Of a stretch of 64,000 bases of DNA, positions 8,234 through 42,200 are shown piece after piece; the stretch's first letter is position 1; the number at the start of each line of letters is the position of its first letter. The position numbers and the translations under genes are program-made. Below the pieces are notes generated by a model. The model was not told the origin of the DNA, did no database searches, and saw only the letters and a program-made list of their open reading frames with translations. Source of the DNA: Candidatus Magasanikiibacteriota bacterium. GTDB taxonomy: Bacteria > Patescibacteriota > Patescibacteriia > Magasanikbacterales > UBA922. Location of the stretch: the NCBI GenBank assembly GCA_021648085.1, contig JAKITS010000001.1:746759-810758 (forward strand). The letters are read 5' to 3'.

Positions 8234-8376
8234 CCGTCATCCTGAGCGGAATGGAACGAAGCGGAATGCAATCGAACGGATCTCGCTTTTGTATCACAAG
8301 ACTTTGAATATTCACAATTCTGGTTATTCTTTTTCGAGATATTTCGACTTCGTTTCACTACGCTCAATATGACGTG
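8234..8376. mobile_element. MITE family A copy (reverse orientation, tandem to 8035-8157)
   Basis: The internal 95 bp are identical to the copy at 8035-8157. Confidence 0.7.
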
Positions 8377-8770
8377 TTTTTTATTACTTCTTTTTTTCTT
8401 TGTTTTTGAAAGAAAATTTATATCATTCCTTTTTCTTTTTCCAAAACCAAAAGAACCACCAAGTTTCCTTAGGTATTTTTGTACTTTTTTATTTATTTTA
8501 TGAAGCACAATTCTTTTAGTTTATTTCCAAATATAAACAAATCGCCTCTGTTTAGAGCCATGTAAATATTATACCATTTTTTGAGCCTTTTTTTAAGACG
8601 CTTTCACGATAGTTATCCACATTTTTTACAATAAAAAATAACTCTTTTAAAAAGTTATTTTTTATTTTTATTTTAAACCCGTTTCTTATCACCAACAACT
8701 CATTTTTCTATTATGTTTAAACATTTTTATCTGTTTAATTCACTATTTTTTGTTTTGTGATACTTTCACG

Positions 8771-8900
8771 AGATCCTTCGGCTTCGCTCAGGATGATGTG
8801 TGAGTATTTTATGCTTCGATCAGGATAACGTGTTTTTTTATTCACATCATATTGAGTGGAGTGAAACGGAGTCGAAATATCTCGTGTTTGTTTCACTATT
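8771..8900. repeat. family A MITE fragments (R half-site followed by L half-site)
   Basis: CGAGATCCTTCGGCTTCGCTCAGGATGATGTG ... CACATCATATTGAGTGGAGTGAAACGGAGTCGAAATATCTCG. Confidence 0.5.
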
Positions 8901-12026: not shown

Positions 12027-12998
12027 ATGAGCAAAAATTTATTAGAGTTCCTACAAGAATTCCTTGAGCACTTAGAGATAGAAAAAAATCGTAGTCCAAA
12101 AACACTACAAAATTATGAGTTTTATGTAAACCGTTTTATAGAATGGTTTGGCGACAAAAAACCAGAAAAAATTAATTTAGAAGAAGTTAGAAAATATAGA
12201 ATTTGGCTAAACCGATTGGAAGATGTTCATGGCGACCCTCTCAAGAATAATACACAAAATTATCACCTTATTGCTTTGCGCTCATTTTTGAAATACTTGG
12301 CAAAACGAGATGTAAAAACGCTTACGCCAGAAAAAATTGAACTAATGAAAATGCCAGACCGTGATATAACTTTTCTAGAAGCATCGGATTTGAATAGAAT
12401 TTTGGAAGCACCAGAAAAACATTTAAAAACTCAGCAAACAAAAAACCCAAAAGTCTCCAGAACAACCAAGCTTATCGCCTATCGCGACAAATCTATTTTG
12501 GAAATGTTGTTTAGCACAGGACTTCGCGTCTCTGAATTGGCAAAATTAAAAAAAGAAAATGTAAATGTAAAACGCGATGAATTTACTGTAAAAGGAAAAG
12601 GTCAAAAATCTAGAATTGTATTTTTATCCGAACAAGCAAAACATTGGGTAAAAAAATATATCGCTGAACGCAATGATATGAATCCTTATTTATTTATCTC
12701 TCACAATCCAAATAAAACTGGTGAAAAAATAGAACACGCACCAATCACACCACGCTCTATTCAGAGACTAACAGAAAAATACGGAAAACTAGCAGGAATT
12801 ACAAAACAAGTGACACCGCACACACTTCGCCATTCTTACGCCACAGACCTACTCCGCAACGGCGCAGATATACGAAGCGTACAAATAATGCTGGGCCACA
12901 CCTCTATCACAACTACGCAAATTTATACTCATATTTCTGACAGAGAGTTGAAATCTGTTTATAAAAAGTTTCATAATAAAGATAAAGAAAGCGGATAA
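12027..12998 (+). CDS. site-specific tyrosine recombinase, XerC/XerD family
   Basis: 323 aa. The N-terminal SAM-like domain is LLEFLQEFLEHLEIEKNRSPKTLQNYEFYVNRFIEWFG. The C-terminal catalytic region is RVSELAKL ... HTLRHSYATDLLRNGADIRSVQIMLGHTSITTTQIYTH (R-H-R-Y). Confidence 0.85.
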   Translation: MSKNLLEFLQEFLEHLEIEKNRSPKTLQNYEFYVNRFIEWFGDKKPEKINLEEVRKYRIWLNRLEDVHGDPLKNNTQNYHLIALRSFLKYLAKRDVKTLTPEKIELMKMPDRDITFLEASDLNRILEAPEKHLKTQQTKNPKVSRTTKLIAYRDKSILEMLFSTGLRVSELAKLKKENVNVKRDEFTVKGKGQKSRIVFLSEQAKHWVKKYIAERNDMNPYLFISHNPNKTGEKIEHAPITPRSIQRLTEKYGKLAGITKQVTPHTLRHSYATDLLRNGADIRSVQIMLGHTSITTTQIYTHISDRELKSVYKKFHNKDKESG

Positions 12999-17333: not shown

Positions 17334-18371
17334 TTAATTATTCAAAAACAAATCAATATATTTTTTATAACTATAACTTTTATCATAAATTTCATTTTCA
17401 TCTAATAGTTGTAAGATACCAAGATCTATAAATCTATATATAACCCTATCAGCACCCGAACGAGTATAGCCAGTCCATTCCATTATAATTTTAGACGATA
17501 TAATTGGCTGTCCATACAACTTTTTTAAAACCTTTACACCACTTTCTGATTCTCGCTTACCCAAAGATCTTAACTTACACATATCTTCTTCATATAATTC
17601 AGTAATATTTTTACATATATTAATAGATTTATTACTAATTTCTATAATACCATCCAAAAAAAAGTTAACCCATGCTTCAACTTCTCCTTCATGATAATTG
17701 TTCAGTTTTTGATAATATATTTTTTGATGTTTCTTAAAATAAGACGATAGAAATAAAACGGGCGATTCCAAAAGTCCCCTATTAATTAGCATCATTGTAA
17801 CAAGTAAACGACCCGTTCTTCCGTTTCCATCAAGAAATGGATGTATTGTTTCAAAATGTGCATGCATTAATGCAATATGAATTAAAGGTAGTGTCGCTTT
17901 TTTATTATGTAAAAATTCTTCAAAATCACCTAAAGCACGCCTCATATCTATTACTGGTGGAGGTACAAATGAAGCGTTAAGCGGATTTGTTCCTCCAATC
18001 CAATTTTGTGAAACACGAAAATCTCCCGGATTAGGATATTGTGTAAATCTTGCCCCAGTCATCAATTTTTTATGTAATTCTTTTATAAACCTTAATGAGA
18101 AAGGAAAATTCTTCAATCTATCAATTCCATATTTAAAAGCCTTTATATAATACAAAATATCATCAGCATCAGAATCATCAACTTCTAGTCCAACCTTTGC
18201 TCCCAAAGCTTCTGCCATCGTCGCCTTTGTTCCTTCTATTTGGGCAGACGATGTAGCATCTTTTGCAACAAACATATTAAGAAAAAAATCTGTGCTAGGC
18301 AACTTATGTGTTATTCCGTCTAATTTAGAAACTGAACCTCTTGCTTCATCTGCTTTTATCATTGTTTCCAT
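17334..18371 (-). CDS. fic: Fic-family protein (class II, N-terminal inhibitory motif), probable AMPylase / adenylyltransferase
   Basis: Canonical Fic motif HPFLDGNGRTGRLL. The N-terminal SxxxEG inhibitory motif (SAQIEGT) is present, and there is a C-terminal winged-helix-like tail. Confidence 0.85.
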   Translation of the reverse strand: METMIKADEARGSVSKLDGITHKLPSTDFFLNMFVAKDATSSAQIEGTKATMAEALGAKVGLEVDDSDADDILYYIKAFKYGIDRLKNFPFSLRFIKELHKKLMTGARFTQYPNPGDFRVSQNWIGGTNPLNASFVPPPVIDMRRALGDFEEFLHNKKATLPLIHIALMHAHFETIHPFLDGNGRTGRLLVTMMLINRGLLESPVLFLSSYFKKHQKIYYQKLNNYHEGEVEAWVNFFLDGIIEISNKSINICKNITELYEEDMCKLRSLGKRESESGVKVLKKLYGQPIISSKIIMEWTGYTRSGADRVIYRFIDLGILQLLDENEIYDKSYSYKKYIDLFLNN

Positions 18372-19037: not shown

Positions 19038-19844
19038 TTAGATTTGCACAGAAAAACCGTGCATCATTTCATTATACATTCCAAAAGGAAACGGAATCGG
19101 GAAAGCCCAAATTTCTCTGGAGACAAAAACAAGCGTTGGTGGCTCCAATTTTCCCAACCATTCAGGTTCAAAATCTTGAGTAAAAGTAGTTAGACTTCCA
19201 GAGGTTGCACCTATAAACACCTCTGTAAGACTGTAATCTACCAAAATCCGAGCACACTTGAAATTCGGCTGAACTCCATATTTTAACGGAACATCTGGGT
19301 GTTCTGTATACACAAATTTTCCTCTAGAAATATGCTTGGCATAACCAAATTGAGCCGGTGAATCTTCTGGATAACACCAGATAAGCACTTCGCTCATACA
19401 TATTTCATCTTCAGAAAGAGGCTTCATTGGACAGGGATCCCAGTAGTTTTCACGCTCATCGCCATCCATATCCATATCACAAGTATCTCCAAAACCATCA
19501 CCATCTAAATCATCCTGTCCGGGATTATACTTACCTGAACAATTATCAAAAAATGCTGGAATTCCATCTTCATCTGCATCATGGCAAATATCTTCGATTT
19601 CATCGTTCCCAGATGGGCAGTCCACAACCCCATCACAAACAACATCTTCTGGCTTCCAATCTGTTTCGCCGTAAAAATCTCCACAATTGAAAAGTTTATA
19701 AATTTCTGCGGTAATATCACTTGAAGGATACTCCCTAAATTGTTCTGGAAGTTCCGGTCTTTCGGTTGCTAATTCTGGAAGTTCCAACTTGTCGCAACTA
19801 AATATTGCAATAAGTATCATAAATAAAACACCAAACCATTTCAT
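19038..19844 (-). CDS. secreted or lipo-protein with thrombospondin type-3-like Ca-binding repeats
   Basis: The probable start is the ATG at 19844, preceded by AGGAGA. The signal peptide MKWFGVLFMILIAIFSC has a lipobox-like Cys. Acidic DxDxDG repeats follow (DGVVDCPSGNDEIEDIC, DADEDGIPAFFDNC, DDLDGDGFGDTCDMDMDGDE). Confidence 0.5.
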   Translation of the reverse strand: MKWFGVLFMILIAIFSCDKLELPELATERPELPEQFREYPSSDITAEIYKLFNCGDFYGETDWKPEDVVCDGVVDCPSGNDEIEDICHDADEDGIPAFFDNCSGKYNPGQDDLDGDGFGDTCDMDMDGDERENYWDPCPMKPLSEDEICMSEVLIWCYPEDSPAQFGYAKHISRGKFVYTEHPDVPLKYGVQPNFKCARILVDYSLTEVFIGATSGSLTTFTQDFEPEWLGKLEPPTLVFVSREIWAFPIPFPFGMYNEMMHGFSVQI

Positions 19845-19951
19845 TCTTCTCTCCTTTTTTGAATGAATAAATTTAAATGAACCATACATAAAAATAACAT
19901 ATTTTATTTATTTTGTCAATAAAAAAACTTAGGTTTTTAATCTAAGTTTTT

Positions 19952-23981: not shown

Positions 23982-25094
23982 ATGAAAAAAAATAAAATAC
24001 TAATTATTTCCATCTCTGCTGGCACTGGTCATATTATGGCTGGCAACGCTTTGGAAAAAACTGCAAAAGAAAGTTTCAAAAATCTAGATGTAAAACATAT
24101 AGATATTGCAGACTTTATGCCAAAACCAATAAAAGCATTATCTGTAAATTCTTATGAGTTAATGGCGAAAAAAATGCCTGAGCTTTGGGGATTGCTTTAC
24201 GACAAAACAGACAATACCAAAGCGTCTACTCTATTAAATAACATATTAAAACTTTCAAAATATTTTTCTGTAAATCAATTTCTTTCGGAGATAAAAAAAA
24301 TAAATCCAGATTATATTATCTGCACACATTTTTTACCAGCATATTTTATAAATCATTCCCCAAAAAAAACTAAACCAGAATGCCCTTTGGCTATGGTTAT
24401 CACAGATTATGAACTGCACTCACTTTGGTTATCTAAAAATATCAGTCATTATTTTGTCGCAACAGACAAAATGAAAAAAAGTATAGAAAAAAAGTATATA
24501 AAAAATATAAAAATAACCGTGAGTGGAATTCCACTTCGTCCAGAATTTTACAAGAAAAAATCTGTAATAGCACTTAAAAAGAAACATAAACTACAAAAAG
24601 ATAACTTCACAATTCTAGTCTTGGCAGGAGGACACGGACTTATTAAAACAGATAAAATAGTTAAATTATTATCAAAAACTTCTTTGGATTTAAATATAAT
24701 AGCGGTTGCTGGAAAAAATTTAAAACTAAAAAATAATTTAAAAAAGATAAAAACAACAAAAGGTAAGGAAATAAAAGTAATGGGTTGGGTAAACAAAATA
24801 GACGAGTTAATAAGAATATCTGATATTGTAATAACAAAACCCGGAGGAATTAGTGTTTCAGAATGTATTGCTTTAAATAAGCCTATTTTTGCAGTACGTC
24901 CAATACCAGGTCAAGAAGAAAAGAATGTGCAGTTTATACAAAAAAACAAACTAGGTAAGCTAATAGGCACACCTGAAGACCTTTTGCAATATATACGCGC
25001 CTTCAAAACAGGAAAGCTGAAATTCTCAAAGCTCAAAGTTCAAAACTCTTCCAAAATAATACTCGGAGAAATAAAAAAGGAGATGAATCGCTAG
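23982..25094 (+). CDS. GT28-family glycosyltransferase, UgtP / MGDG-synthase-like (diacylglycerol glycosyltransferase)
   Basis: 370 aa. The N-terminus KILIISISAGTGHIMAGNALEKTA resembles UgtP/MGDG synthase (RVLILTANYGNGHVQVAK). A terminator lies at 25160-25195. Confidence 0.65.
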   Translation: MKKNKILIISISAGTGHIMAGNALEKTAKESFKNLDVKHIDIADFMPKPIKALSVNSYELMAKKMPELWGLLYDKTDNTKASTLLNNILKLSKYFSVNQFLSEIKKINPDYIICTHFLPAYFINHSPKKTKPECPLAMVITDYELHSLWLSKNISHYFVATDKMKKSIEKKYIKNIKITVSGIPLRPEFYKKKSVIALKKKHKLQKDNFTILVLAGGHGLIKTDKIVKLLSKTSLDLNIIAVAGKNLKLKNNLKKIKTTKGKEIKVMGWVNKIDELIRISDIVITKPGGISVSECIALNKPIFAVRPIPGQEEKNVQFIQKNKLGKLIGTPEDLLQYIRAFKTGKLKFSKLKVQNSSKIILGEIKKEMNR

Positions 25095-25199
25095 GCTTTG
25101 TCTGCTTGATAAATCATTTATTTTGTTCGCTTGGATTAGAAAGAAAAAATAACAAAACAAAAAAAGAACTTTCTGAAAAGTTCTTTTTTTGTTTTCAAC

Positions 25200-25440
25200 A
25201 CGTCATATTGAGCGGAGTGAAACGGAGTTGAAAATCAAAGTTCACGTCATATTGAGCGGAACGGAGTGGAGTCGAAATATCTCGATGCTGTATTATTAGA
25301 ACTTTGAATATTTTATGTTTTGGTAATACTGTCCCGAGATCCATTCGACTCCATTCCGCTTTGCTCCATTTCGCTCAGGATGACGTTATGAAAGGTGATA
25401 CTATCTCGAGATCCTTCGGCTTCGCTCAGGATGGCGTTAT
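25200..25440. mobile_element. cluster of family A MITE copies: an L half-site, a full copy and an extra R half-site
   Basis: It contains repeated CACGTCATATTGAGCGG ... and ... CGCTCAGGATGGCGTTATGG segments. Confidence 0.65.
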
Positions 25441-25539
25441 GGAATAATAAATTAACAAATAAGCAGATTAACCTAAAGAAACAAAAAAGAACCTCTAAAA
25501 GATTCTTTTTGTTTAAATTCTATTTAATTTATTACCCCA

Positions 25540-25839
25540 TTAAACCAAAGCCTCAAAAACAAAAGTTGTAATAGCGTAAGCGCTCAAGATTATAAATAAT
25601 CCTATTATTGAAGACATTAAAATCTTTTTTGCTTTTCCCACTTTCTCTTCATTTCCTGCAGAAGTCATCCACAAAAATCCACTATAAATAATAAGAATTA
25701 CAAATACTATTCCAAGTAAACCCAAAGCAACTTGAACAACCTGCCCAACTATTTGTCCTATACTTGCGTTAGATAATCCTGTTCCGCCGACAGCTTGGTC
25801 CAAAACAGAACTTGCATCTTTTATATTACTATTTGGCAT
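25540..25839 (-). CDS. T4SS-pilin-like (VirB2/TrbC-fold) small membrane protein, bare pilin module
   Basis: 99 aa with two hydrophobic helices flanking the conserved loop GFLWMTSAGNEEKVGKAKK. This is the architecture of VirB2/TrbC pilins and of the Patescibacteria 'T4SS_pilin' family. Confidence 0.6.
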   Translation of the reverse strand: MPNSNIKDASSVLDQAVGGTGLSNASIGQIVGQVVQVALGLLGIVFVILIIYSGFLWMTSAGNEEKVGKAKKILMSSIIGLFIILSAYAITTFVFEALV

Positions 25840-25842
25840 ATA

Positions 25843-26517
25843 TTATTTAGCTAAACAAGAATATTCAGCACCAATATATGTTTTACAATCATCCCTCCCT
25901 ATAACACAAGGTTGGGTAGTTTCACACCTATATTTATTATAAATTTCACCTCTATCTGTACAAACTTTTTCTGCTTCTGTTATTGGAGTTTCAGTTCTTA
26001 TAATACTTTTACAAACACCATTAGGAGAGGTTCCTAAAACACAAAGAGAATCAATACATGTTTCACCAGAAGAACAATCTGAATTTTCTACACAAAATTC
26101 ATCAGCAAAAGGAAGATTGTTTATATTACCCCCTCCACCACCCACTCGCCCATCCAAACTACTAAAAATAAAACTAGTCAAAGCGTAAGATGCAAATACA
26201 ATTATAAGACCAATTACAGCTGCAATAATTGTATCTTTTGCTTTGTTTACAATGTCTTCTTTTCCGCGTGCGGTCATCCAAAGAAATCCACCGTAAACCA
26301 TTAAAATAAAAAATACAACTCCCACCAAAGAAAGTGCGCTTCCTATAATATTTCCCACCAAAGCTGTAAGATCGCTATTTCCTGCAAGTCCAGCGGCACT
26401 AGCAGTTTTGCTCAGCCCATAATCATCTGCCAAAACCAAAACTGGTGCAAACAAAATTGCACTAGCTCCAAACAAAGTCAAAAATTTTCTTGATAAAAGT
26501 TTACTTATTTTTTTCAT
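25843..26517 (-). CDS. T4SS-pilin-like module (N-terminal) fused to a C-terminal Cys-rich domain
   Basis: It has a signal-like N-terminus, then the pilin core VYGGFLWMTARGKEDIVNKAKD, then a poly-Gly linker and a domain of about 100 aa with at least 12 Cys (CVENSDCSSGETCIDSLCVLG ...). Confidence 0.6.
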   Translation of the reverse strand: MKKISKLLSRKFLTLFGASAILFAPVLVLADDYGLSKTASAAGLAGNSDLTALVGNIIGSALSLVGVVFFILMVYGGFLWMTARGKEDIVNKAKDTIIAAVIGLIIVFASYALTSFIFSSLDGRVGGGGGNINNLPFADEFCVENSDCSSGETCIDSLCVLGTSPNGVCKSIIRTETPITEAEKVCTDRGEIYNKYRCETTQPCVIGRDDCKTYIGAEYSCLAK

Positions 26518-26544
26518 AATTTTAATAAAAACAAAATTTTTATG

Positions 26545-26875
26545 TCATCCTGAGCGACAGCCGAAGGATCTCGGGAAAGCATCACAAGGTTTTAAATATT
26601 CAAAGTTTTAATGTTCTTGAATCGAGATATTTCGACTCCACTTCGTTCCGCTCAATATGACGTGACTGAATTTTGTCATTCTCAGCGGGAAAACATGATT
26701 AAAATACACGTCATCCTGAGCGAAGTCGAAGGATCTCGGGAAAGCATCACAAGGTTTTAAATATTCAAAGTTTTAATGTTCTTGAATCGAGATATTTCGA
26801 CTCCACTTCGTTCCGCTCAATATGACGTGACTTAAAAAACGTTATTCTAAATTCACTTCGCTCAATATGACATAA
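26545..26875. mobile_element. two tandem family A MITE copies (reverse orientation) separated by a family-B terminus fragment
   Basis: The sequence GTCATCCTGAGCGA ... CCGCTCAATATGACGTGACT is repeated twice, and TTTTGTCATTCTCAGCGGG lies between the copies. Confidence 0.7.
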
Positions 26876-27032
26876 TTAATTTTAATAGAAACAAAATTTT
26901 TAATATTTTGCCGATATACAGCAAAATATTAAAAAGTTCATTCTGGGGCTACAGCACAATACGATTTCACTTGAAGTGATATTGTGCCGTAGCCCTAAAG
27001 ACGAGTTTCCCCGCCTCTTTCCTTTTTATTTA

Positions 27033-27464
27033 TTATAGATAACCTGAAACATCAGCATTTGAACCTGTCGCAGTCGATAATTGTGCGATTACAAATGTAG
27101 CAAGTGCCCATGCACTCATAATAATTGCCAAACCTATAATACCAGAAAAAATGATTTTCTTTGCTTCTCCAACTTTTTCTTCACTTCCACCAGCAGTCAT
27201 CCATTTAAATCCACCCATTAGTATAATCACTACAGCGACAACACCAAGCAGACTTAAAGCAATATTGATAACACTAGCAATAGTTGTTTGGATCGATTCA
27301 CTTCCCAAACTACCGGCTAGTCCAGTTTCAACCTCTTCCAAACCAAAAGTATCCTGAGCGAAAACTACAGGTGCCATAGCAAAACTGAAAGCAAATACTA
27401 CTATCATGGCTACAACTGCCTTTTTTTCTATTAACTTTACTATTAATTTATTCATTGTTTTCAC
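27033..27464 (-). CDS. T4SS-pilin-like membrane protein
   Basis: Its core MGGFKWMTAGGSEEKVGEAKK is flanked by two TM helices, and the N-terminus is signal-like. Confidence 0.6.
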   Translation of the reverse strand: MKTMNKLIVKLIEKKAVVAMIVVFAFSFAMAPVVFAQDTFGLEEVETGLAGSLGSESIQTTIASVINIALSLLGVVAVVIILMGGFKWMTAGGSEEKVGEAKKIIFSGIIGLAIIMSAWALATFVIAQLSTATGSNADVSGYL

Positions 27465-27520
27465 CTCCCTTCCTTTTTTGGATATTGTACATAATTTAAT
27501 TTATAAAAATTATTTTTAAT

Positions 27521-28396
27521 TTAAAGTAAACAAGATACTAAAACGGTCTGTTCCCACAAAGACAAAACATCTCCATTTATAAGCTCCTTAATCCTTTCTA
27601 GATCTAAATAATCCACTACACATATTACAACATCAGAATCAACAGTCACACCACTATAATCACCAGCATAACAACTTTCTGCTTTTTTAATCTCTTGTGA
27701 TGTTGGTTTTCTTGTTGCATTTTTAATTTCTTCTGCTTCAGCTCCTCCAATTTCATTGGATACACAAGTTATAAGAGAAGACATTGATATATTTAAAGAT
27801 TTTTCTTCATTTTTTTTACTATTTCCCTCTCTTGTTTTACAACAAACAATGTTATTTCCACCTTTACACAAATTTACTTTACATGTATTTGGATTTTGTT
27901 CACACAAACCTCTATCCAAATCTACATCTTCAAAAGCTAAACTAGGCAAGTCGCATTCTCCTATATTCCTACAAGAAAACCCATCTCCAATGTCTTTACA
28001 GACAAGTTCTGGATTATTACCACCACCATTTAAAGAATCGCCAGTAATTCCAGATAATACCATATTAAGTATAGCATAACTAGAAAAAATAATGAAAAGT
28101 CCAACAACTGCATAAATCATAGTATTCCAACCCTTTTTTATCTTTTCTTGGTTGCCAGCAGAGGTCATCCACAAAAAACCACCATACATAAAAACAGCCA
28201 AAGTGACAGAACCTACAACACCCAAAGCAACCTTTACCCCACCTCCCAAAATTGTATTTAAATCTGTTCCTGCACCAATTGGATTTTCCAATTTAACTAT
28301 TTCTCCAGCTTGTGCAAAAACCTTATCTATATTTAAAAATAAACCAAAAATAGTAAAACTTATAAATGTGTATATTTTTTTAAAATCTTTTTTCAT
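27521..28396 (-). CDS. T4SS-pilin-like module (N-terminal) fused to a C-terminal Cys-rich domain
   Basis: The core is MYGGFLWMTSAGNQEKIKKGWN. The C-terminal domain is rich in Cys (VCKDIGDGFSCRNIGECDLPS ... CEQNPNTCKVNLCKGGNNIVCCK). Confidence 0.6.
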   Translation of the reverse strand: MKKDFKKIYTFISFTIFGLFLNIDKVFAQAGEIVKLENPIGAGTDLNTILGGGVKVALGVVGSVTLAVFMYGGFLWMTSAGNQEKIKKGWNTMIYAVVGLFIIFSSYAILNMVLSGITGDSLNGGGNNPELVCKDIGDGFSCRNIGECDLPSLAFEDVDLDRGLCEQNPNTCKVNLCKGGNNIVCCKTREGNSKKNEEKSLNISMSSLITCVSNEIGGAEAEEIKNATRKPTSQEIKKAESCYAGDYSGVTVDSDVVICVVDYLDLERIKELINGDVLSLWEQTVLVSCLL

Positions 28397-28455
28397 ATTT
28401 ATTTAAAACAATTTTTTTTATTATACCAACTTTTTTTCATATAACATATTTAGTC

Positions 28456-28733
28456 AAGTGGAGTGGAGTTGAAAATCAAAGCTCACGTCATATTGAGCAA
28501 AACGCAGTGGAGTCGAAATATCTCGATGCTGTATTATTAGAACTTTGAATATTTAAAACCTTATTATACACTCCCGAGATCCTTCGACTTCGCTCAGGAT
28601 GACGTGATGGAAAGGTGATACTATCCCGAGATCCTTCGGCTTCGCTCAGGATGACGTGATGGAAAGGTGATGCTATCCCGAGATCCTTCGGCTTCGCTCA
28701 GGATGACGTGATTTTTTAATCACACTATATTGA
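28456..28733. mobile_element. family A MITE copy followed by a tandem array (2.7 x 52 bp) of the R half-site unit CCCGAGATCCTTCGGCTTCGCTCAGGATGACGTGATGGAAAGGTGATRCTAT
   Basis: The tandem units lie at 28573-28624, 28625-28676 and 28677-28713. Similar two-unit arrays occur at 39105-39205, 25395-25440 and 49730-49790. Confidence 0.65.
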
Positions 28734-28828
28734 GCTCCACCTCATAAAATCAACGTATCTCAGGACTAAATTACAAATAATTAAATAAGATATTAACCTT
28801 CTTTTTGTCTCATGCTTTTCTATCCTAG

Positions 28829-29329
28829 CTATTTTATAACTCTAAATTCTCCGGTCACGCTTAATGCGTCCAAAATAAAATCTATCATCATATAAGCTCC
28901 AAAAGCTATTACCAATCCAACAACTGCTGCGACCATCACATTTTTTCCCTCTTTGAATTTTTCTGGATTTCCAAAAGATAAAATCATTTTAAAGCCACCA
29001 TAAATAAACATAGCAAAAGCTAAACCACCAATAATAGAAAAAAGGAACTGTCCAACTTTTATACCAAACTCCACCAAATCACTAACATCATCGCAATACT
29101 GTCCTTTTACATCTCTGGTAAGCGCACAGTCTGGAATTAATTTTGAACTTTTTGGTGGATTTTTTATAGTTTGTGGTGCTGTTGGGGTTGCTGGAGTTGT
29201 TGAAGTTGGAGTTGGGGTTGTTGTAGTAGTAGGTGCGCCACTTACAACTAGAGGACTAAACAAAAATCCACCAATTATAAAACCTGGTAAAACCAACCAA
29301 ATTAAAAGTTTATTTTTAAAATTTTTCAT
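28829..29329 (-). CDS. T4SS-pilin-like protein with an N-terminal Thr/Pro-rich linker
   Basis: The TTTTTPTPTSTTPATPTAPQ linker is followed by the pilin core IYGGFKMILSFGNPEKFKEGKN between two TM helices. Confidence 0.55.
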   Translation of the reverse strand: MKNFKNKLLIWLVLPGFIIGGFLFSPLVVSGAPTTTTTPTPTSTTPATPTAPQTIKNPPKSSKLIPDCALTRDVKGQYCDDVSDLVEFGIKVGQFLFSIIGGLAFAMFIYGGFKMILSFGNPEKFKEGKNVMVAAVVGLVIAFGAYMMIDFILDALSVTGEFRVIK

Positions 29330-29344
29330 AATAATATTTTATGT

Positions 29345-29545
29345 TCTAATGTTTTTGAATCGAGATCCGTTCGACTCCACTTCGTTTCGCTCAATATGAC
29401 GTGAGTAAAAATACGTCATATTGAGTGGAGTGAAACGGAGTCGAAATATCTCGTGTTTACATCATTAGAACTATGAATATTTTATATTCTTGTGATATTG
29501 CCCCGAGATCCTTCAGCTTCGCTCAAGATGACGTGTTCTATTCCT
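29345..29545. mobile_element. family A MITE copies (reverse-orientation copy plus L and R halves)
   Basis: CGAGATCCGTTCGACTCCACTTCGTTTCGCTCAATATGACGTG ... CGTCATATTGAGTGGAGTGAAACGGAGTCGAAATATCTCG ... CCCGAGATCCTTCAGCTTCGCTCAAGATGACGTG. Confidence 0.65.
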
Positions 29546-29588
29546 AAATTTCTACTTTACAAACTTTATGAACTTTCAACTTTCTTTT

Positions 29589-30962
29589 CTAAAGTGTTTG
29601 CTGAATAATTTGTGCTGCTCTCTGCACTGCCTGAGCCTGAATCTTCAAAAAGTCTCCGCTATTTTCCAAAGGTTGCGAATAAACATCTACCATATCTGCA
29701 AAAGCTGTGTCCGCTGCGTCTATATCTTTTCCGTGATACCAATTTTTTGCAGTTAGAGCCTGAAAAGCGAACGCTTGCATCTCCACATCTTTTTGTTGCT
29801 GTGCAATTTGAGCTCTAAACGGACTTGGCTGGCTTGTTTTATCTGTATATTTTTTTACATTATTTTGTGAGGCGATAAATCTTACAAAATCCCAAGCCAA
29901 GTCTTGGTTTTCAGACTTGTTTACAACAGACTCAACCCAATAATTTGCTATATTTGTAGGTACCGCTTCATTTAACTGTGGAACAGGAATAACATTCAAA
30001 TTCATTTGTGGTGCACCTGCTTTTATTCTATTTTTGTCGAAAGCAAACCCAAGATAAAATACTGAAGATCCTCTCATAAAATCTTGCAGCGCATCACCTT
30101 TTCTTTTATTCCAAGAATATACATCGCGCGTAGATCTAGCAAAATCTGTATAAAATCCCAATGCCTTTAGAGTTGGGTGGTCTGGAGACGGTCTTTGCAA
30201 ACCTTCTGCAAAACGAACAGAAGAACCGTTTACCATATCCACTCCGCTTTGCATCATCAAAAGAGATAAAATATCAAAAGAATTATCTATATTTTTTGAT
30301 GTTCCAAGCGCAATTCCAGATTGCACAATATCTCCCGCAACATTAAATTTTGTAGATTTTATGACTGCATCTCTCAACTCTTCCCAATCTCTTGGCGCAA
30401 GAGGCACTCCAGACTTATCCAACAAATCTTTGTTATAATAAAGCGCCAAAGTATCTACCGCCAGAGGAAGTCCAAAAATATCTCCGTCTAATATTACATC
30501 TTCTGCAACAGTTCCTATATATTGAGAACGAATGGTGTTTATGTTTGGCATTGCCAAAGTCTCACTTGTTATAATTGTTTCTTTCGCCAAAGTTCCTTTT
30601 ACCTCTACATTTGCAACATTTATACTTCTTGGCATTGGTGCAAGCCTGCTTTTATATTTACCAAGCCAACGGGTGTGAAGAGATACAACATCTGGCCCAA
30701 CATCATCTGCTAGTGCGTTTGCAAATAATTTATCAAATTCATCGTAGCGAACCTGTCTTACATTTACTTTTACATAAGGACGAAGTTGTTGATATGCTAC
30801 AGCCATGTCTCTTAAATGGTCTACATCGTTGAAAACCGTCCAATAATTTAAAGTGACCGGTCGAATAGACTGTTGCTGTTCTTTGGACAAACCCTTACAT
30901 CCAAGACCGGTGGTAATGAGTAAGGAAAAAATTATAGAAAAAATGACAAGCTTGTTTTTCAT
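29589..30962 (-). CDS. ABC-transporter substrate-binding lipoprotein (extracellular solute-binding family 1, sugar-type), orphan
   Basis: 457 aa. The lipobox is LLITTGLGC. The SBP_bac_1 hallmark segment is GLPLAVDTLALYYNKDLL. It overlaps the upstream gene by about 4 bp. No permease or ATPase gene is nearby. Confidence 0.65.
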   Translation of the reverse strand: MKNKLVIFSIIFSLLITTGLGCKGLSKEQQQSIRPVTLNYWTVFNDVDHLRDMAVAYQQLRPYVKVNVRQVRYDEFDKLFANALADDVGPDVVSLHTRWLGKYKSRLAPMPRSINVANVEVKGTLAKETIITSETLAMPNINTIRSQYIGTVAEDVILDGDIFGLPLAVDTLALYYNKDLLDKSGVPLAPRDWEELRDAVIKSTKFNVAGDIVQSGIALGTSKNIDNSFDILSLLMMQSGVDMVNGSSVRFAEGLQRPSPDHPTLKALGFYTDFARSTRDVYSWNKRKGDALQDFMRGSSVFYLGFAFDKNRIKAGAPQMNLNVIPVPQLNEAVPTNIANYWVESVVNKSENQDLAWDFVRFIASQNNVKKYTDKTSQPSPFRAQIAQQQKDVEMQAFAFQALTAKNWYHGKDIDAADTAFADMVDVYSQPLENSGDFLKIQAQAVQRAAQIIQQTL

Positions 30963-30966
30963 AGAT

Positions 30967-31902
30967 TTATTTAAATGCTTGAAATATAAAATTTACAAGT
31001 GCATAACTAGAAAGTATAACCAAAATTCCAATACTCGCCCACACAAGTGTATCCATTGCTTTCTTTTGTCGTTCCGAATTTCCATGAGCTGTCATCCACA
31101 AAATACCTGCGTAAATGAAAATTATCAAAGCCAATGTTCCAACTACTCCCATTATAGTTTTGATAACTCTTCCTATTAAAGCCGGAATATCTGTTCCAAG
31201 TTTATTTAAAGATTCAGCAGGCGGAAGCTTAAATGGTGTTTCTTTTTCATCTTTTGGTGCTGGTGGCGTGGGTGGTTTAGTTGCAGAATAAAAAGCTACA
31301 GAATGATCTTTCGCACAATTATAGCTTCTCTGATATTTTTGTACCAAATCTTGACAATCTGATGCTGTATTACAAGTCTTTTTTTCATCTGCACAATATT
31401 TAAAAAATGGATCTTTAGATGGTACACATACTTGAGAATTAGGACAAACACCTGTTTGCTCACATGATTGTGTGGCTGCTAAAAAACAAAAAAAATCTTC
31501 TTGTTTAATCTGACAATTATTGATTTCAGCTTTATAATAATAATGAAGAAAAGCCGTATCCTCTATAAACCCTTCAATGTTTGTATTATCACATGAACTC
31601 TGATCTTTAATTATTTTTTGCGAAAATAATATTATATTATTTACTATTTGCGGTTTATAAGGATAACAACTATTTTCGGGTATCATATTATTAATCATAT
31701 CAACAAAAGAAAACCCCTTATTTATAATAAATTTAGTTCCTGGATGATTTTTTGTACAATCTTGACCTGGAGAAGATGTAGATGATGCTGTTTTACCTGA
31801 TAAGTTAACATCACAAACACAATCCTCTGCTTTAACATTCCCACCAACAAAAAACACCCCAAAAACAACAAATCCTAAAATTAAAAACCTAAAATTCCTC
31901 AT
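30967..31902 (-). CDS. Cys-rich domain (N-terminal) fused to a C-terminal T4SS-pilin-like module
   Basis: The signal/TM start MRNFRFLILGFVVFGVFFVGG is followed by a Cys-rich domain of about 200 aa (EDCVCDVNLSG ...), a PPTPPAPK linker and the pilin core IYAGILWMTAHGNSERQKKAMD with a final TM helix. Confidence 0.55.
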   Translation of the reverse strand: MRNFRFLILGFVVFGVFFVGGNVKAEDCVCDVNLSGKTASSTSSPGQDCTKNHPGTKFIINKGFSFVDMINNMIPENSCYPYKPQIVNNIILFSQKIIKDQSSCDNTNIEGFIEDTAFLHYYYKAEINNCQIKQEDFFCFLAATQSCEQTGVCPNSQVCVPSKDPFFKYCADEKKTCNTASDCQDLVQKYQRSYNCAKDHSVAFYSATKPPTPPAPKDEKETPFKLPPAESLNKLGTDIPALIGRVIKTIMGVVGTLALIIFIYAGILWMTAHGNSERQKKAMDTLVWASIGILVILSSYALVNFIFQAFK

Positions 31903-32747
31903 AATAAACCTTCTTTTTTAGCAAAATGTATTGATGTCTTTAATAATGCCAATTTATTTCCTGTGTCAAAATATTCTCCTTCATATTCATAAGCCAAAAA
32001 TGTATTTTTCCTCGCCATATCGTCTGCTGCGTCAGAAAGCCAAACTTCACCATCTTTTCCACGACGAGTTTTTTCTAAATATTTCCAAATTTCTTTTGTA
32101 AAAACATATCTCATTCCACCCACAATTAATCCTTGCGGTGAAACCTTTTTTTCTACTGGTTTTTCTACAAATTTTCTAACCCTAAATGTTTTTTTACCAT
32201 CAACCAAGTCTGCATACACATTTCCATATTTTGTCATTGCTTTTGTGTCTGTAATTCTTTGAACTCCAATTACACTATGTCCTTTTTTCTTGAAAACTTT
32301 CAAAAGTTGTTTTATAACCGGAACTTTTGCATCTATAATACTGTCTCCATCTGAAAATGCAAAAGGTTCATCTCCTACAAAATTGCGCGCACAAAGAAGA
32401 GCATCCCCATTTCCGAGAGGCTCTCTTTGTCGTGTATAAAAAAATCTAACTTTTTTTGTAAGATTTACCAAATCTTTTATTCTATCGTATTTACCTTTTT
32501 CTTTTAAAAACTTTTCAAATGATAAATCTCTATCAAAATGATCCTCTATCGCTCTTTTTTGTGAACTTGTGACGAAAATTATTTCTGTAATTCCACTTTT
32601 TGCCATTTCCTCTACAATATATTGCACAACTGGTTTGTCCAAAACAGGAAGCATTTCTTTTGGCATTGCTTTTGTTGCAGGCAAAAATCTGGTTCCAAGA
32701 CCAGCCACCACAATCACACCTTTTTTAACTTTTTGCACTTTTGGCAT
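31899..32747 (-). CDS. galU: UTP--glucose-1-phosphate uridylyltransferase
   Basis: The GalU signature is VVAGLGTRFLPATKAMPKEMLPV, and there is a VEKP motif near the C-terminus. It overlaps the next gene by 4 bp, consistent with an operon. Confidence 0.85.
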   Translation of the reverse strand: MPKVQKVKKGVIVVAGLGTRFLPATKAMPKEMLPVLDKPVVQYIVEEMAKSGITEIIFVTSSQKRAIEDHFDRDLSFEKFLKEKGKYDRIKDLVNLTKKVRFFYTRQREPLGNGDALLCARNFVGDEPFAFSDGDSIIDAKVPVIKQLLKVFKKKGHSVIGVQRITDTKAMTKYGNVYADLVDGKKTFRVRKFVEKPVEKKVSPQGLIVGGMRYVFTKEIWKYLEKTRRGKDGEVWLSDAADDMARKNTFLAYEYEGEYFDTGNKLALLKTSIHFAKKEGLL

Positions 32748-32877
32748 AACTAAAGAATTATTCTTGTAAAAAGCTATTTTAAAATAGTCCTGCTATTATA
32801 CCACAAAAAATAAATGCGCAATAAAAGACAGAAGTGCGAAGTGAATAAAACCCTGGATTTTCAATCGAGATGAAGAT

Positions 32878-33100
32878 GGTAAAAATCCCACACGCCATCC
32901 TGAGCGGAATTTTCCACACGTCATCCTGAGCGGAGTCGAAGGATCTCGAAATAAAAACACTAGAACGCAAAATATTCAAAGTTCTAGTGATGCGGCATCG
33001 AGATATTTCGACTCCACTGCGTTCCGCTCAATATGACGTGAGCTTTGATTTTTAACTCCACTGCGTTCCGCTCAATATGACGTGAACTTTTATTTTTAAC
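32878..33100. mobile_element. family A MITE copies (R-type half in reverse, then a full copy with duplicated L halves)
   Basis: CACGCCATCCTGAGCGGAATTTTCCACACGTCATCCTGAGCGGAGTCGAAGGATCTCG ... CGAGATATTTCGACTCCACTGCGTTCCGCTCAATATGACGTG, repeated twice. Confidence 0.65.
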
Positions 33101-33174
33101 TCCACGAGGTGAAACTTATAATATGATCTATGCTAATTTTTTAACTCCGCTTTGTTTTATTCAAAATAATATAA

Positions 33175-33207
33175 TAAAAAAAGAACCTCTTTAGAGGTTC
33201 TTTTTTT
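33175..33207. terminator. palindromic bidirectional terminator (AAAAAAAGAACCTCTTTAGAGGTTCTTTTTTT)
   Basis: It serves the rpsF-ssb-rpsR operon, which ends at 33219. Confidence 0.65.
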
Positions 33208-33218
33208 ATTTTTTGTTT

Positions 33219-35774: not shown

Positions 35775-36115
35775 TTTGGTGATTCTATTGCGAGATCCAT
35801 TCGACTTCATTCCATTTCATTCCATTTCACTCCATTTCGCTCAGGATGACGTGATTTAACATACGTCATATTGAGCGGAGTGAAACGGAGTCGAAATATC
35901 TCGATTCAAAATCATTAGAATTATGAATATTTAAAACCTTGTGATATTGTCCCGAGATCCTTCGACTTCGCTCAGGATGACGTATGTGTGTTTTCCGCTC
36001 AGGATGACGTTTTTTTGTTCACATTATATTGAGCGGAGTGAACTTAGGATGACGCGTGTATTTTACGTCATCTTGAGCGGAACGAAGTGGAGTCGAATGG
36101 ATCTCCGTGCAATAT
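35775..36115. mobile_element. compound cluster of family A MITE copies and half-sites (at least three nested or tandem copies)
   Basis: It contains repeated CGAGATCCATTCGACTTCATTCC ... GCTCAGGATGACGTG, CGTCATATTGAGCGGAGTGAAACGGAGTCGAAATATCTCG and CCCGAGATCCTTCGACTTCGCTCAGGATGACG segments. Confidence 0.6.
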
Positions 36116-39206: not shown

Positions 39207-42200
39207 TTAAATAGCAGGAACTGTATCTACAGCCACAGGTTCTATCACTGGAGCAGGCTCTACCACAACCACTGGTTCTGGAATTGGTTCTTCTACAATT
39301 GGCTCAGGAATCACAGGTTCTGGTGTCGGTTCTATAATAGGCTCCGCAACAACAGGCTCAGGAGTTGGTTCTGGTACAGGCTCTATTAGAGTTGGAGTAG
39401 TCGTAGGTGTTTCCACGACAGGAACAGTTGTAGTTGGTGTTTCTACCAGAATTTCAGGTGTTGTTGTTGGGGTTGAAGTAGGAACTATAGGCTCTGGAAT
39501 TGGCTCTACTACCACAGGAGCTGGTCCAATTCTACGGCTAGCGATTACAACCCAGTCAAAAGTCGCATTACTTGTTCCACTTTGAAGTTCTTTTACGGTA
39601 AACCCGCTCACATCTTTTTGGCTTACAAAAATTCCATTTGCCTCGGCTGTAAGAGTAATAGAAACTTTAATTGGCTTGTCTGCATCTATAATTTCGCTTT
39701 CTACCGCGCTAAATAAAACTTTAAACTCACCATCTACCAAAGTTCCAGATCCAGAATATATGAGTTCAGTATCTTGAGATTGAAGCGCGTACAAATTCTT
39801 GTCTCCTTCTGTTGTTATAATCTTTGTAATAAATCTACCTTCCACATCTACACTCCATGTATTATCTATAGCTATTAGGCTTCTTACATTTATAATAGAA
39901 AAGTTATTTAAATTTAGATCATTTGAAATTGGCAAAATACTACTTCCGCTTGGTACTACTGTCAATTGAGATGGGTCTGCTTGAATATTTATTGCGTTGT
40001 CTTGAGCTACAGAAATTAAGTCTTGTTGCATTTGAGCGATAGTTTGGTTCTTATTATTTACCCAACCAGTTTTGATAAGTCCCATTATTTTTCCAGTTGA
40101 AGTTGTAAGTGAATCTAGTGCAATTCCCACAATTCCCACCACATTGTCGCCAGTGTCTTTTGTAGGATCATATCTCATAGCATGCCCTGGGACAGAAGCG
40201 GTAATGAGTAAATCTCCACGCTCAATTTGTCCATTTTCTGCACTTACTTTAATAGGAACACGACCAACCATTGCCATTACTGCGGTATGTTGTGTCTTAC
40301 CATTACCTACTGTAATTGTAGGATTTGTAGAAACCACACCCGCCACTTCTTGCACATAAGAACCTTGGCTTTTTGTATACATATCACTAGAACTAGAATC
40401 TACCACTAAAACATCTCCAGCTTCTACAATATAAGCTGGGTTTATATCTACTCGCTCTGCCAAGTCTCCCGGTGCTCCTGGAGTACCAACTGTTGCAGAA
40501 GATGCAAACAATTGTCCAGCAGCGCGAACAGTACCATCTCCTTCTACAGAGAATTTTGCAGTTCCGCCAGTTCTTACAGAAAATAGATAATCACCTGGAG
40601 AAGTGAAAGCTGTATCTGTGTCAAAAATATGTGCTGCGTCTGGAATAGAACCAGCTGTAAATGTAATTGCACCTCTTAATATTGTTTTGGTAATACTTGC
40701 ATTACCCAAAGTTACAGAATTACTTCCGTTTCCTGTTGTGGTATGTCCTATCACTATTTCATTTGTATCTCCACTCGCAAAGGCTCTTGTGTTATACCCA
40801 AGATAAAGAGAGTTGGTTGATGTTGCATTTGCTATTGAACCACCAGTTATAGATCTACCCGCCCCATAACCAACGGCTGTATTATCATCTCCTGTAGTAT
40901 TTGAAGAGAGAGCATATGAACCAAATCCAGTATTATTGTCCCCTGTGGTGTTAACCATAAGAACTGAACTACCTATTCCAGTATTATCAGTACCTATTGT
41001 ATCCCTAAGAGTTTCTGTACCAAATGCTGTATTTCCAGAAGTACTAGTAACAGACTTTAAAGTATTAAACCCAACTGCTGTATTATAGAATCCGGTAGTA
41101 TGGCCTTCACCTGAATTTATACCTACGAAAGTATTATAATATCCTTCAATTCCTGAAGTATTAGACAAATTAGTCCCCCCATCTCCTATTATCAATGAGC
41201 CTGTCATTGCGGTTGGGCGGTAAAGGACAACTGTTCCATCCAATGCTACTTTTCCTGATATGTCTAGTGCATAGCTAGGAGTAGTAGTATTTATTCCCAC
41301 AAATCCTGTTGCAGGTCTTAGGTTTAAGTCTCCATATCCTGTGTTGATACTTGCTACTTCACTTTCTACTTCGAATACTGATATGTCGTCAAATTCAACA
41401 TAACCTGTGGAAGCTGATTGCCCCAACACAAGGCTTGTCCCTCCTGCTCCTACAAAGGTTATATCGAAGTATTGCCAATCTGTTGAACTTGTTCCTGTCC
41501 ATAAACTAGATGCAAAATTCACAACCCTAGGGGCATTTGTTCCATTACCTCTTGCCCAACCTGTAAGTCTATATGTTTTTCCAACCACTATTATTGACTG
41601 AAAAGCTCCAGCATTTGCAATTCCTGTTCCTGCTACTCTTAATATTTGCAGTCCACCATGAGGATTAGTTGTTTCTTTTGTTATTGTAGGAAAAGATGTT
41701 TCACTCCATTCCCCAACTCCACTCTTTTCCATATCCCCATCAATCAATACACTCTTTCCATTCAAAGTAAGCTCATTCCCCATATTTATAGTCCTAGAAA
41801 CATAAGCATTTCCATCTACTTCCAAATTATAATTTGCTGTTGTTGTGTTTATTCCCACATATCCTGTTGCAGACATCAAATTTATATCTCCAGCTCCAGT
41901 ACTGATAGTTCCGTCTGTTTGATTGTGATACATTTCTATATATTGAGTTTTTGATGTCGCAGCCGCTGTTGCAGAATAAACTCTAAAATGTGTATTTGTA
42001 GTAGTTGCAACAGAATAATCATTAGTTTTATTTGCATTCGCAACAACACTAATGCCATAATCATTTCCTCCAGCTATAATATTTAAAGATTTATATAAAC
42101 CAGCAGCATTTGCGCCATATAACCCAGGATTTGCAACAGAAGCCCCAAAATAAATTGGTTTGAAATTCATTAATACTTGGTCGTACATTGATATTGCTCC

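Follow-up and report, generated by a model that had tools for sequence, protein, structure and literature searches.

A conserved envelope-gene block with an array of putative VirB2-like pilins and cassette-like cysteine-rich ectodomains in Magasanikbacteria

The stretch of Magasanikbacteria DNA analyzed here (64 kb, referred to as the window) carries six minus-strand open reading frames (ORFs) for pilin-like proteins, named pilin1 to pilin6 (25540 to 31902), in the company of genes for a GalU-like enzyme, a sugar-type substrate-binding protein (SBP) and a glycosyltransferase of family GT28. All six, described in an initial annotation as paralogs of VirB2/TrbC fold, were found where that annotation had placed them. 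The sequences of pilin3, pilin4 and pilin6 are identical to NCBI proteins already named "pilin" (from a Candidatus Magasanikbacteria metagenome-assembled genome [MAG]). Housekeeping genes lie on both sides of the array, with S6, SSB and S18 upstream of it and NrdD plus NrdG downstream, and the GC content is uniform across the locus. Array positions are numbered from the SBP gene, minus being the galU side (-1 is the pilin6 site) and plus the downstream array. Read along the minus strand, the features are as follows (aa, amino acids; nt, nucleotides).

31899 to 32747, minus strand: GalU-like UTP-glucose-1-phosphate uridylyltransferase, first gene of the block (PF00483, 111 bits)
30967 to 31902, minus strand: pilin6, array position -1 (PF18895, 39.1 bits); leader at aa 1 to 25, Cys-rich N-terminal ectodomain at aa 26 to 215 with 14 Cys, Pro-rich linker, pilin module at aa 234 to 311 (nt 30970 to 31203)
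31221 to 31847, minus strand: hypervariable segment of the pilin6 ectodomain, bounded by the conserved signal-peptide region and the conserved linker plus module
29589 to 30962, minus strand: SBP_bac_1 sugar-type SBP (PF01547, 75 bits) with a lipoprotein-like Cys motif
28829 to 29329, minus strand: pilin5, array position +1 (PF18895, 39.5 bits); leader, Thr/Pro-rich linker (ca. nt 29141 to 29236), one Cys pair
28859 to 29092, minus strand: pilin5 module, downstream of the Thr/Pro-rich linker
27521 to 28396, minus strand: pilin4 (PF18895, 34.0 bits); leader, module at nt 28043 to 28276, Cys-rich C-terminal ectodomain with 12 Cys
27033 to 27455, minus strand: pilin3, short conserved pilin of 140 aa (PF18895, 53.6 bits, the highest score among the six)
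26897 to 26935, minus strand: terminator-like hairpin 3' of pilin3, a 17-pair stem (3 G-C pairs) followed by the T-run TTTTGTTTCT (consensus scan only)
25843 to 26517, minus strand: pilin2 (PF18895, 31.6 bits); leader, module at nt 26152 to 26385, Gly linker, Cys-rich C-terminal ectodomain
25846 to 26151, minus strand: pilin2 C-terminal ectodomain, 10 Cys, with weak DPY/EB/Myxo Cys-repeat matches below cut-off
25540 to 25839, minus strand: pilin1, a 99-aa module with no hydrophobic leader (PF18895, 47.5 bits; NF045849, 44.1 bits)
25154 to 25195, no strand assigned: palindromic terminator-like hairpin between the array end and the GT28 gene, a 19-pair stem plus T-run (scored on the minus strand only)
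23982 to 25094, plus strand: GT28/MGDG_synth-type glycosyltransferase, UgtP/YpfP-like (PF06925, 90.6 bits; PF04101, 29.6 bits; both above their cut-offs)

The six proteins all scored above the gathering cut-off (26.6 bits) of PF18895, the T4SS_pilin family of type IV secretion system (T4SS) pilins. The initial annotation had named this patescibacterial family, and on the HMM (hidden Markov model) scores the assignment can be taken as firm. NF045849, a model for pilin-like proteins of Mycoplasma integrated conjugative elements (ICEs), also matched all of them (E, 1e-11 to 1e-4), pilin1 above the cut-off of 40 bits and the other five below this equivalog threshold. The two-helix core that had been described around a conserved motif was recovered throughout, with a length of ca. 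78 aa: a helix, the stretch G-G-F-(L/K)-W-M-T-x-x-G-N-x-E-K, and a second helix, pilin5 (KMILSFGNPEK) being the sole deviant. Pairwise identity to pilin1 is 26 to 44% for the same-strand paralogs, of which related genomes have 8 to 16. The hydropathy profiles follow one plan (leader, hydrophobic helix 1, short K/R-rich loop with a net positive charge, hydrophobic helix 2), save for the leader of pilin1, so that the loop is placed consistently. Such a hairpin topology would leave both N- and C-terminal additions outside the cytoplasm. The Cys counts of pilin1 to pilin6 are 0, 10, 0, 12, 2 and 14, all of them even, and no Cys lies inside any pilin module.

The SBP sequence was used as a query against species-representative genomes, which gave 236 relatives, and 80 loci were kept for locus analysis (designated by L numbers below). 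Array pilins in these loci were called with our own HMM of the pilin core; as a validation with Pfam, 10/10 array genes of L022 were above the PF18895 cut-off. One pilin was left out of the counts: L001, a 7-kb metagenome contig, has inverted copies at both ends (1 to 867 and 6146 to 7012), each with a 173-aa pilin gene, probably an assembly artefact, and the left-hand gene was excluded. A total of 688 pilin cores formed a single BLAST cluster. What is attached to them is a different matter. The window has Cys-rich extensions in three genes (C-terminal in pilin2 and pilin4, N-terminal in pilin6) and the Thr/Pro linker of pilin5 with its two Cys, as the initial annotation had reported. Among 682 array pilins, 155 have an N-terminal extension of at least 100 aa and 151 a C-terminal extension of at least 50 aa, i.e., ca. 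44% carry ectodomains, with 381 having none at all. Cys makes up 0.1% of the pilin module, 5.2% of the N-extensions and 8.6% of the C-extensions (background, 0.7%), and every one of the 151 C-extensions has an even number of Cys. This even, Cys-rich pattern is as expected of fully disulfide-bonded extracytoplasmic domains.

Clustering of 309 ectodomains by BLAST yielded 218 clusters, 188 of them singletons. The Cys-rich modules had been said to belong to no nameable family, and indeed no Pfam or NCBIfam match above cut-off was obtained for them. The only sequences that the pilin6 ectodomain retrieved from 1.84 billion representatives were its own and that of a Big_3_5 Ig-repeat protein, a marginal match (E = 7.5e-4) that is only a hint of an Ig-like subdomain. 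AlphaFold2 gave predicted local distance difference test (pLDDT) values of <50 at residues 18 to 236 of pilin6 (alignment of 5 sequences). The ectodomain of pilin6 opens with a CxC motif (aa 28 to 30). Incidentally, this motif starts about half of the unalignable N-ectodomains, at positions -1, +1 and +2 (window pilin6, P0002 to P0004 and many genome loci), and sits ca. 5 to 12 residues past the predicted leader cleavage site.

The cores have preferred positions in the array. The best match of pilin5 was at +1 in 72/75 loci, and that of pilin6 at -1 in 29 loci and at +2 in 26; pilin4 matched best at +2/+3, pilin3 at +3/+4 and pilin2 at +5/+6. The type of ectodomain depends on position as well, with N-terminal grafts at -1, +1 and +2, short pilins at +3 and +4, and C-terminal grafts at +5 and +6. 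These preferences of both cores and ectodomain types indicate that the paralogs are old and specialized rather than recent duplicates. The downstream array of the window is a condensed, five-gene version common to its close relatives.

At the level of strains, the ectodomains show a cassette-like turnover. Four alleles (L001, L006, L007 and the window) lie behind our count of cassettes at this level. Identity between L001 and L007 amounts to 97.8% for GalU, 93.7% for the SBP and 96.8% for the core of the pilin, but the ectodomains of their galU-linked pilins (254 and 226 aa) have no significant similarity. In the DNA, the two are 92.7% identical up to nt 57 of the gene, then unalignable for ca. 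680 to 770 nt, and 90.3% identical thereafter. The L001 allele is not an assembly artefact, since it was identical in five independent samples; a metagenome scan with the alignment of pilin6 orthologs returned a single close relative, again the L001 contig. When the window pilin6 gene was compared with its relatives by blastn, the alignment ended at 31848 and picked up again at 31220. From these alignments, the ectodomain of the galU-linked pilin appears to be replaced wholesale, in a cassette-like manner, between near-identical strains. Other pilins of the window show comparable changes. With respect to L089 (NrdD 90% identical), the Thr/Pro run of pilin5 is replaced in L089 by a Cys-rich mini-domain, and the distal (C-terminal) half of the pilin2 ectodomain is unalignable. 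The last 103 aa of pilin4 (nt 27524 to 27832) are unique to the window genome, with no homolog in any fetched locus; its orthologs (P0127 to P0129 and L088 to L090) have 188 to 190 aa and end in ...CCKAK. As for how the exchange takes place, we considered two mechanisms and rejected both. Silent donor cassettes do not fit, as neither the window nor the fetched loci contained a second (donor) copy of any ectodomain and there was no compositional shift at the pilin6 ectodomain, its GC content being equal to that of the flanks. A diversity-generating retroelement would mutate the domain, not replace it, and there was no reverse transcriptase among the scanned ORFs.

One gene of the array stands apart. 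The start of pilin3 is most likely the ATG at 27455 (the NCBI call), preceded by the Shine-Dalgarno site GGGAGGTG, and not the GTG at 27464, and this is the sole strong Shine-Dalgarno site in the locus. pilin3 is 83% identical to its ortholog in L089 (59 to 67% for the other pilins) and has 1115 database homologs at 50 to 84% identity. AlphaFold2 (alignment of 113 sequences) predicted a helical hairpin (H58-89/H95-133) with block-mean pLDDT values of 86 to 98, mostly >90. With its short length, a strong Shine-Dalgarno site that no other gene of the locus shares, the 3' hairpin, the highest conservation, the best Pfam score and the 1115 homologs, pilin3 looks like the abundant backbone subunit and is our candidate for the major pilin.

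The array is embedded in a block of genes that is maintained across the class. The GalU-like protein scored 283 bits over the full length of TIGR01099 (galU), below the equivalog cut-off of 326.8, and is best called GalU-like. The end of its gene overlaps the start of pilin6 by 4 nt (31899 to 31902), and the SBP gene starts 4 nt past the stop of pilin6; the initial annotation had it differently, with the last paralog overlapping the SBP gene and this, in turn, overlapping galU. The co-operonic arrangement that it had proposed for the cluster applies to galU-pilin6-SBP but does not extend to the other paralogs, which spacers of 259, 432 and 515 nt divide into separate units. Other tight pairs are pilin4-pilin3 (56-nt gap) and pilin2-pilin1 (3-nt gap, pilin1 starting in the same frame as pilin2, just past its TAA stop). 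A read-through joining the last two was considered and rejected: TAA, one codon and then ATG is ordinary tight coupling.

The nearest relatives of the SBP with solved structures are sugar, maltose and acarbose SBPs (PDB; E, 2e-13 to 1e-3). Of 84 orthologs, 75 have the motif G-(L/F)-G-C-K-G, with its Cys, after the hydrophobic leader, a conserved feature consistent with a lipoprotein. In the window and in almost all the 80 loci kept, the gene has galU or a pilin upstream and pilins downstream, with no permease or ATPase partner adjoining it, and no permease family was found in the window; the first description of the locus had already noted a sugar-binding lipoprotein that lacks a permease partner. 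The GT28 protein scored 209 bits against PRK13609 (diglucosyl-diacylglycerol synthase; equivalog cut-off, 500). Its gene had been placed "just upstream" of the pilins; it actually lies past the downstream end of the array, on the other strand and in convergent orientation.

This layout recurs. In essentially every locus with sufficient flanks (ca. 80), galU is followed by 0 to 3 pilins with N-terminal ectodomains, the SBP gene, and a same-strand array of ca. 8 to 15 pilins, and the same galU-(pilin)-SBP-array order was found in further metagenome loci. galU lies upstream of the SBP gene or of a pilin in nearly all related loci, and all the pilin6 orthologs on metagenome contigs sit between galU and the SBP gene, with 4- to 5-nt spacers. 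In 39 related genome loci, and likewise in the close relatives L088 and L089, the array has a GT28 homolog, mostly convergent, at its downstream end or within that end. The genes outside the conserved block vary between lineages. The linkage of the array to galU, SBP and GT28 genes, first noticed in the window, is thus not accidental, since it recurs class-wide. It should be noted that in L055 (16956 to 17693) and L062 (16272 to 17402) a GT2 or GT28 gene lies on the same strand inside the array, with one more pilin gene after it. Also, many Magasanikbacteria have a trio of genes directly 5' of galU (L055, 5218 to 9015; similar in L013, L020, L058, L062 and L085), coding for a protein of ca. 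600 aa with N_methyl and CarboxypepD_reg domains, an N_methyl protein of ca. 204 aa and a protein of ca. 460 aa of no recognized kind. There, type IV pilin-like genes adjoin the VirB2-like array; the window has S6-SSB-S18 in that place.

The spacers of the pilin locus are filled with copies of a genome-wide intergenic repeat.

25100 to 25539, 26518 to 27032, 28397 to 28828, 29330 to 29588 and 32748 to 33218: repeat-filled spacers, no strand assigned
1249 to 1372, 8014 to 8800, 25199 to 25387, 26649 to 26829, 28484 to 28710, 29388 to 29535, 32891 to 33084, 35838 to 36079 and 54132 to 54315: examples of repeat sites

The core of the repeat, CACGTCAT(AT/CC)TGAGCG, has 44 sites in the window (0 expected) and is part of composite inverted units of ca. 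110 to 145 nt that occur at 88 to 97% identity on related contigs and fill every spacer of the pilin locus; no Rfam family matched it. Copies (especially 8014 to 8376) fall within the N-terminal part of a GTG-started ORF of 2306 aa with LVIVD and fn3 domains (1588 to 8508, minus strand), the true start of which is probably downstream of ca. 8000. This is one of three very large predicted surface proteins, all encoded on the minus strand (1588 to 8508, 2306 aa; 39207 to 49280, 3357 aa; 50537 to 53998, 1153 aa), with LVIVD repeats (two giant LVIVD-repeat proteins), fn3/purple-acid-phosphatase-N and CarboxypepD_reg domains, which are further candidates for surface or adhesion proteins of the same segment. 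At 6 to 13 kb from the array there are genes for a XerC/D-like tyrosine recombinase (12027 to 12998, plus strand), a Fic/DOC protein (17334 to 18371, minus strand) and a thrombospondin type-3 repeat protein (19038 to 19889, minus strand), none of which shows any sign of belonging to it. Incidentally, many public MAG records with a Magasanikbacteria-type locus (L012, L013, L016, L019, L022 and ca. 40 others) bear the title "uncultured Gammaproteobacteria bacterium," a taxonomic label that is very likely wrong.

The VirB2/TrbC fold ascribed to the six proteins from the start holds as far as the PF18895 family goes; the direct connection to TrbC/VirB2 came out faint. The scores against PF04956 (TrbC/VirB2; gathering cut-off, 27.9 bits) were all below threshold, at 24.8 (pilin6), 20.6 (pilin2), 20.3 (pilin4) and 11.8 (pilin5) bits, three of these four having E values of <0.001, and pilin1 and pilin3 gave no match. 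An hhalign comparison of a 56-sequence pilin alignment with an alignment of annotated VirB2 sequences of Ti-type plasmids was weak (P = 0.0053; probability, 6.8%), albeit in register, with the pilin FKWMT turn opposite the ISWMF of VirB2. A Foldseek search of the PDB with the pilin3 hairpin found nothing at E ≤0.001, only generic helical hairpins at E >1, the fold being too simple to discriminate, and the family HMM had no matches among PDB sequences even at E ≤10. Homology of the window pilins to VirB2 is nevertheless plausible.

We consider it probable, with moderate confidence, that the locus encodes a VirB2-like system made of one backbone pilin and of position-specific, modular minor pilins that expose exchangeable contact domains to the outside, all within a conserved envelope block. 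The region would be the form that the VirB2-like pilin array of Patescibacteria takes in Magasanikbacteria (class ABY1 in the GTDB). Every product would be inserted in the membrane as a two-helix hairpin, with the positive loop in the cytoplasm and both ends facing outward, after removal of a leader that is predicted to be cleavable in five of the six. pilin3 would provide the bulk of the filament, and the remaining paralogs would be ancient minor pilins, each specific to its position, several of them "modular," i.e., with a disulfide-rich ectodomain on whichever terminus is used outside. The ectodomains, unrelated between species, may act as ligand- or host-contact surfaces under strong diversifying pressure, with near-identical strains swapping that of the galU-linked paralog as a cassette. 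The array would be one part of an envelope block that runs from galU through an optional N-ectodomain pilin, the lipoprotein sugar-type SBP and the pilins to the convergent UgtP-like GT28 gene, and the polymerizing machine (VirB4 and partners) would be encoded elsewhere in the genome. What the analysis shows directly is the membership of the family, the logic of the topology, the Cys pattern, the hypervariability, the synteny and the orthology by position; from these we infer the polymerization into filaments, the role as adhesins, pilin3 as the major subunit and any coupling to UDP-glucose/glucolipid metabolism or to the SBP.

Several observations weigh against this proposal. A tight helical lattice of the VirB2 type would leave little room for ectodomains of 100 to 200 aa on its outer face, so that such subunits could only be sparse or located at the tip. 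pilin1 has no hydrophobic leader, unlike the other five. The link to bona fide VirB2/TrbC was weak in every comparison that we made. No VirB4, VirB6, coupling protein or relaxase family was found among the window ORFs of at least 110 aa, nor a VirB3 gene in the 64 kb, and a look at 8 related loci likewise turned up none of the genes for VirB4, VirB6, VirB3 and the coupling protein. That galU and GT28 stay with the array could be a matter of history and not of function. On the other hand, PF18895 pilins of Patescibacteria often, but not always, lie near virB4 or other T4SS genes (1135 of 1948 assemblies). VirB4 has been recorded, in a table from the literature, for two other Magasanikbacteria genomes, among them GW2011_GWC2_37_14, which carries the same pilin locus (L048). 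Because these related genomes are VirB4 positive, a motor encoded elsewhere is likely.

Three other explanations have to be set against the pilus with exchangeable contact domains. The PF18895 hairpin could be just an anchor that keeps the paralogs in the cytoplasmic membrane of this monoderm cell, with the variable disulfide-rich domains and the lipoprotein SBP displayed there as a set of receptors or adhesins that never polymerize. The bulky ectodomains on 44% of the array genes would suit such a display, as would the envelope-biogenesis genes (galU and the UgtP-like glycosyltransferase) and the lipoprotein next to them, the lack of T4SS machine genes nearby (neither the window nor the 8 related loci had any) and the non-significant structural and sequence links to VirB2 proteins that do polymerize. 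However, more than half of the array genes (381/682) have no ectodomain to display, the short and conserved pilin3 with its strong translation signals fits a major subunit better than a bare anchor, and the homologous array of Saccharibacteria is found inside a T4SS cluster and is essential. We regard surface display without a pilus as rather unlikely. A second alternative is that the array supplies the mating pilus with which an integrated conjugative element transfers DNA. The name of the family, the weak TrbC/VirB2 matches, the likeness to the Mycoplasma ICE family NF045849 and the tyrosine recombinase gene at 12027 to 12998 point in this direction, but relaxase, VirB4 and coupling protein were not found among the window ORFs of at least 110 aa, and the locus lies amid housekeeping genes, at a position conserved class-wide and with a uniform GC content. 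A relaxase is, moreover, missing from most patescibacterial T4SS clusters (PMC12102498). Conjugation seems to us very improbable, and an ICE or prophage origin was rejected on the basis of gene context and conserved synteny.

The third explanation gives the neighbors a direct role. GalU and the UgtP-like GT28 would make UDP-glucose and glucosyl-diacylglycerol, the latter co-assembled 1:1 with the pilins, or else the sugars would be placed on the Thr/Pro linkers, and the SBP would sense the matching host glycan. The two genes bracket the array class-wide while those outside the block differ between lineages, and GalU (GtaB) followed by UgtP is the glucolipid route of Firmicutes. VirB2-type pili are stoichiometric polymers of pilin and lipid (PMC5018250), phospholipid in F and T pili, but the RP4 pilus has been reported to be lipid independent (PMC13434634). 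Against it, the connection is drawn from synteny, with GT28 on the opposite strand, galU and ugtP are general envelope genes that are required irrespective of pili, and the linkers hardly exceed the background in P+T+S content (0.23 versus 0.19). We find this coupling doubtful. In its most elaborate form, a VirB2-type filament would be a co-polymer of pilin and a glucolipid supplied through GalU and GT28, with disulfide-rich adhesin cassettes on its tip or surface, swapped between strains so as to track the hosts, and an SBP that reads the host glycan; we give this only a slim chance. If it were true, the conserved block would be a self-contained locus for a host-contact organelle, separate from the T4SS motor.

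Returning to the modular pilus that we prefer, the role of the T4SS in patescibacterial epibionts has been described as "completely unknown" (PMC11665869), and the division of labor between a single conserved backbone pilin and modular pilins tied to their positions offers a handle on the function of the arrays. The hypervariable, disulfide-rich layer with its cassette-like turnover points to a direct interaction with changing partners (hosts or phages), and the class-wide frame of galU, an orphan sugar-type SBP and a glucolipid-type glycosyltransferase suggests biochemical partners that can be tested. If the ectodomains were host-recognition modules, their alleles could mark host range in uncultivated CPR (candidate phyla radiation) populations.

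The pilin array as such is already known. Three of the window proteins carry the name in NCBI, and tandem arrays of 2 to 11 divergent VirB2-like pilins have been published for Patescibacteria (PMC12102498, PMC10633639, PMC12857230), with 441 arrays in the work of Quinonero-Coronel et al. (2025); versatility toward host strains has already been proposed as their role. In S. epibionticum ML1, six essential pilins lie inside the T4SS cluster (PMC10633639, PMC12857230). The window array resembles these in its PF18895 membership, its tandem same-strand paralogs of low identity, its chromosomal location and the monoderm CPR host. It differs in that it is not beside virB4 but inside the galU-SBP-...-GT28 block, that its relatives reach 13 to 16 genes, that the order of the paralogs is position specific and that nearly half of them carry hypervariable Cys-rich ectodomains. 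The papers cited here on patescibacterial pilin arrays do not mention galU, solute-binding proteins, glycosyltransferases or Magasanikbacteria in that connection, and full-text searches brought up nothing further on T4SS_pilin, nor on "cysteine-rich" VirB2 in CPR. The conserved block with position-specific paralogs, the layer of Cys-rich ectodomains and their replacement between strains thus look new with respect to the searchable literature.

As for the flanking genes, GtaB (GalU) and UgtP catalyze in Firmicutes the two steps of glucolipid synthesis, the formation of UDP-glucose and the transfer to diacylglycerol. The enzymes on both sides of the array correspond to these consecutive steps, yet both are below the NCBIfam equivalog cut-offs. 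An orphan SBP encoded apart from a permease also has a precedent in PrgZ of the T4SS-bearing plasmid pCF10. To our knowledge, there is no biochemical or genetic link of GalU/UgtP or of orphan SBPs to pilins. The Mycoplasma ICE proteins Mbov_0395 and MMCAP2_0565 (NF045849) share with the window pilins a monoderm lineage and a VirB2-like hairpin, but the window context is not that of an ICE and five of the six pilins are below the cut-off of the model. With TrbC, VirB2 and TraA (RP4, T and F pili), the window pilins have in common the leader plus two-helix hairpin, the W-M turn after helix 1 and a termini-out, loop-in topology (predicted in the case of the window); they differ in their PF04956 scores below cut-off, the lack of PDB matches and the lack of adjoining T4SS genes. 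We know of no large grafted domains as a feature of classical VirB2 pilins. In TraA, both termini are outside the pilus and the loop is in the lumen (PMC5018250), an arrangement matched by the predicted outward placement of the additions in the window pilins.

A small pilin module with a diverse module grafted onto it is the same design logic as in the modular type IV pilins PilB and PilC of Streptococcus sanguinis, in which a small polymerizing module carries a diverse, probably tip-exposed adhesive module (Raynaud et al., 2021, PMC8179133). However, the family and the machine are unrelated: the class III leader (N_methyl) belongs to type IV pilins, whereas PF07963 (N_methyl) gave no match on the window pilins and the motif G[FYW][TS]xxE is absent from the window ORFs of at least 50 aa. 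By these motif searches, the resemblance appears to be one of analogy, not of homology. Finally, the VirB2 arrays of Bartonella and Anaplasma consist of divergent copies whose supposed role, as cited in PMC12102498, is to vary the antigen or widen the range of hosts. The variation reported there is in the pilin itself, whereas in arrays of the window type the cores are conserved orthologs, specific to their positions, and the variation is concentrated in the ectodomains.

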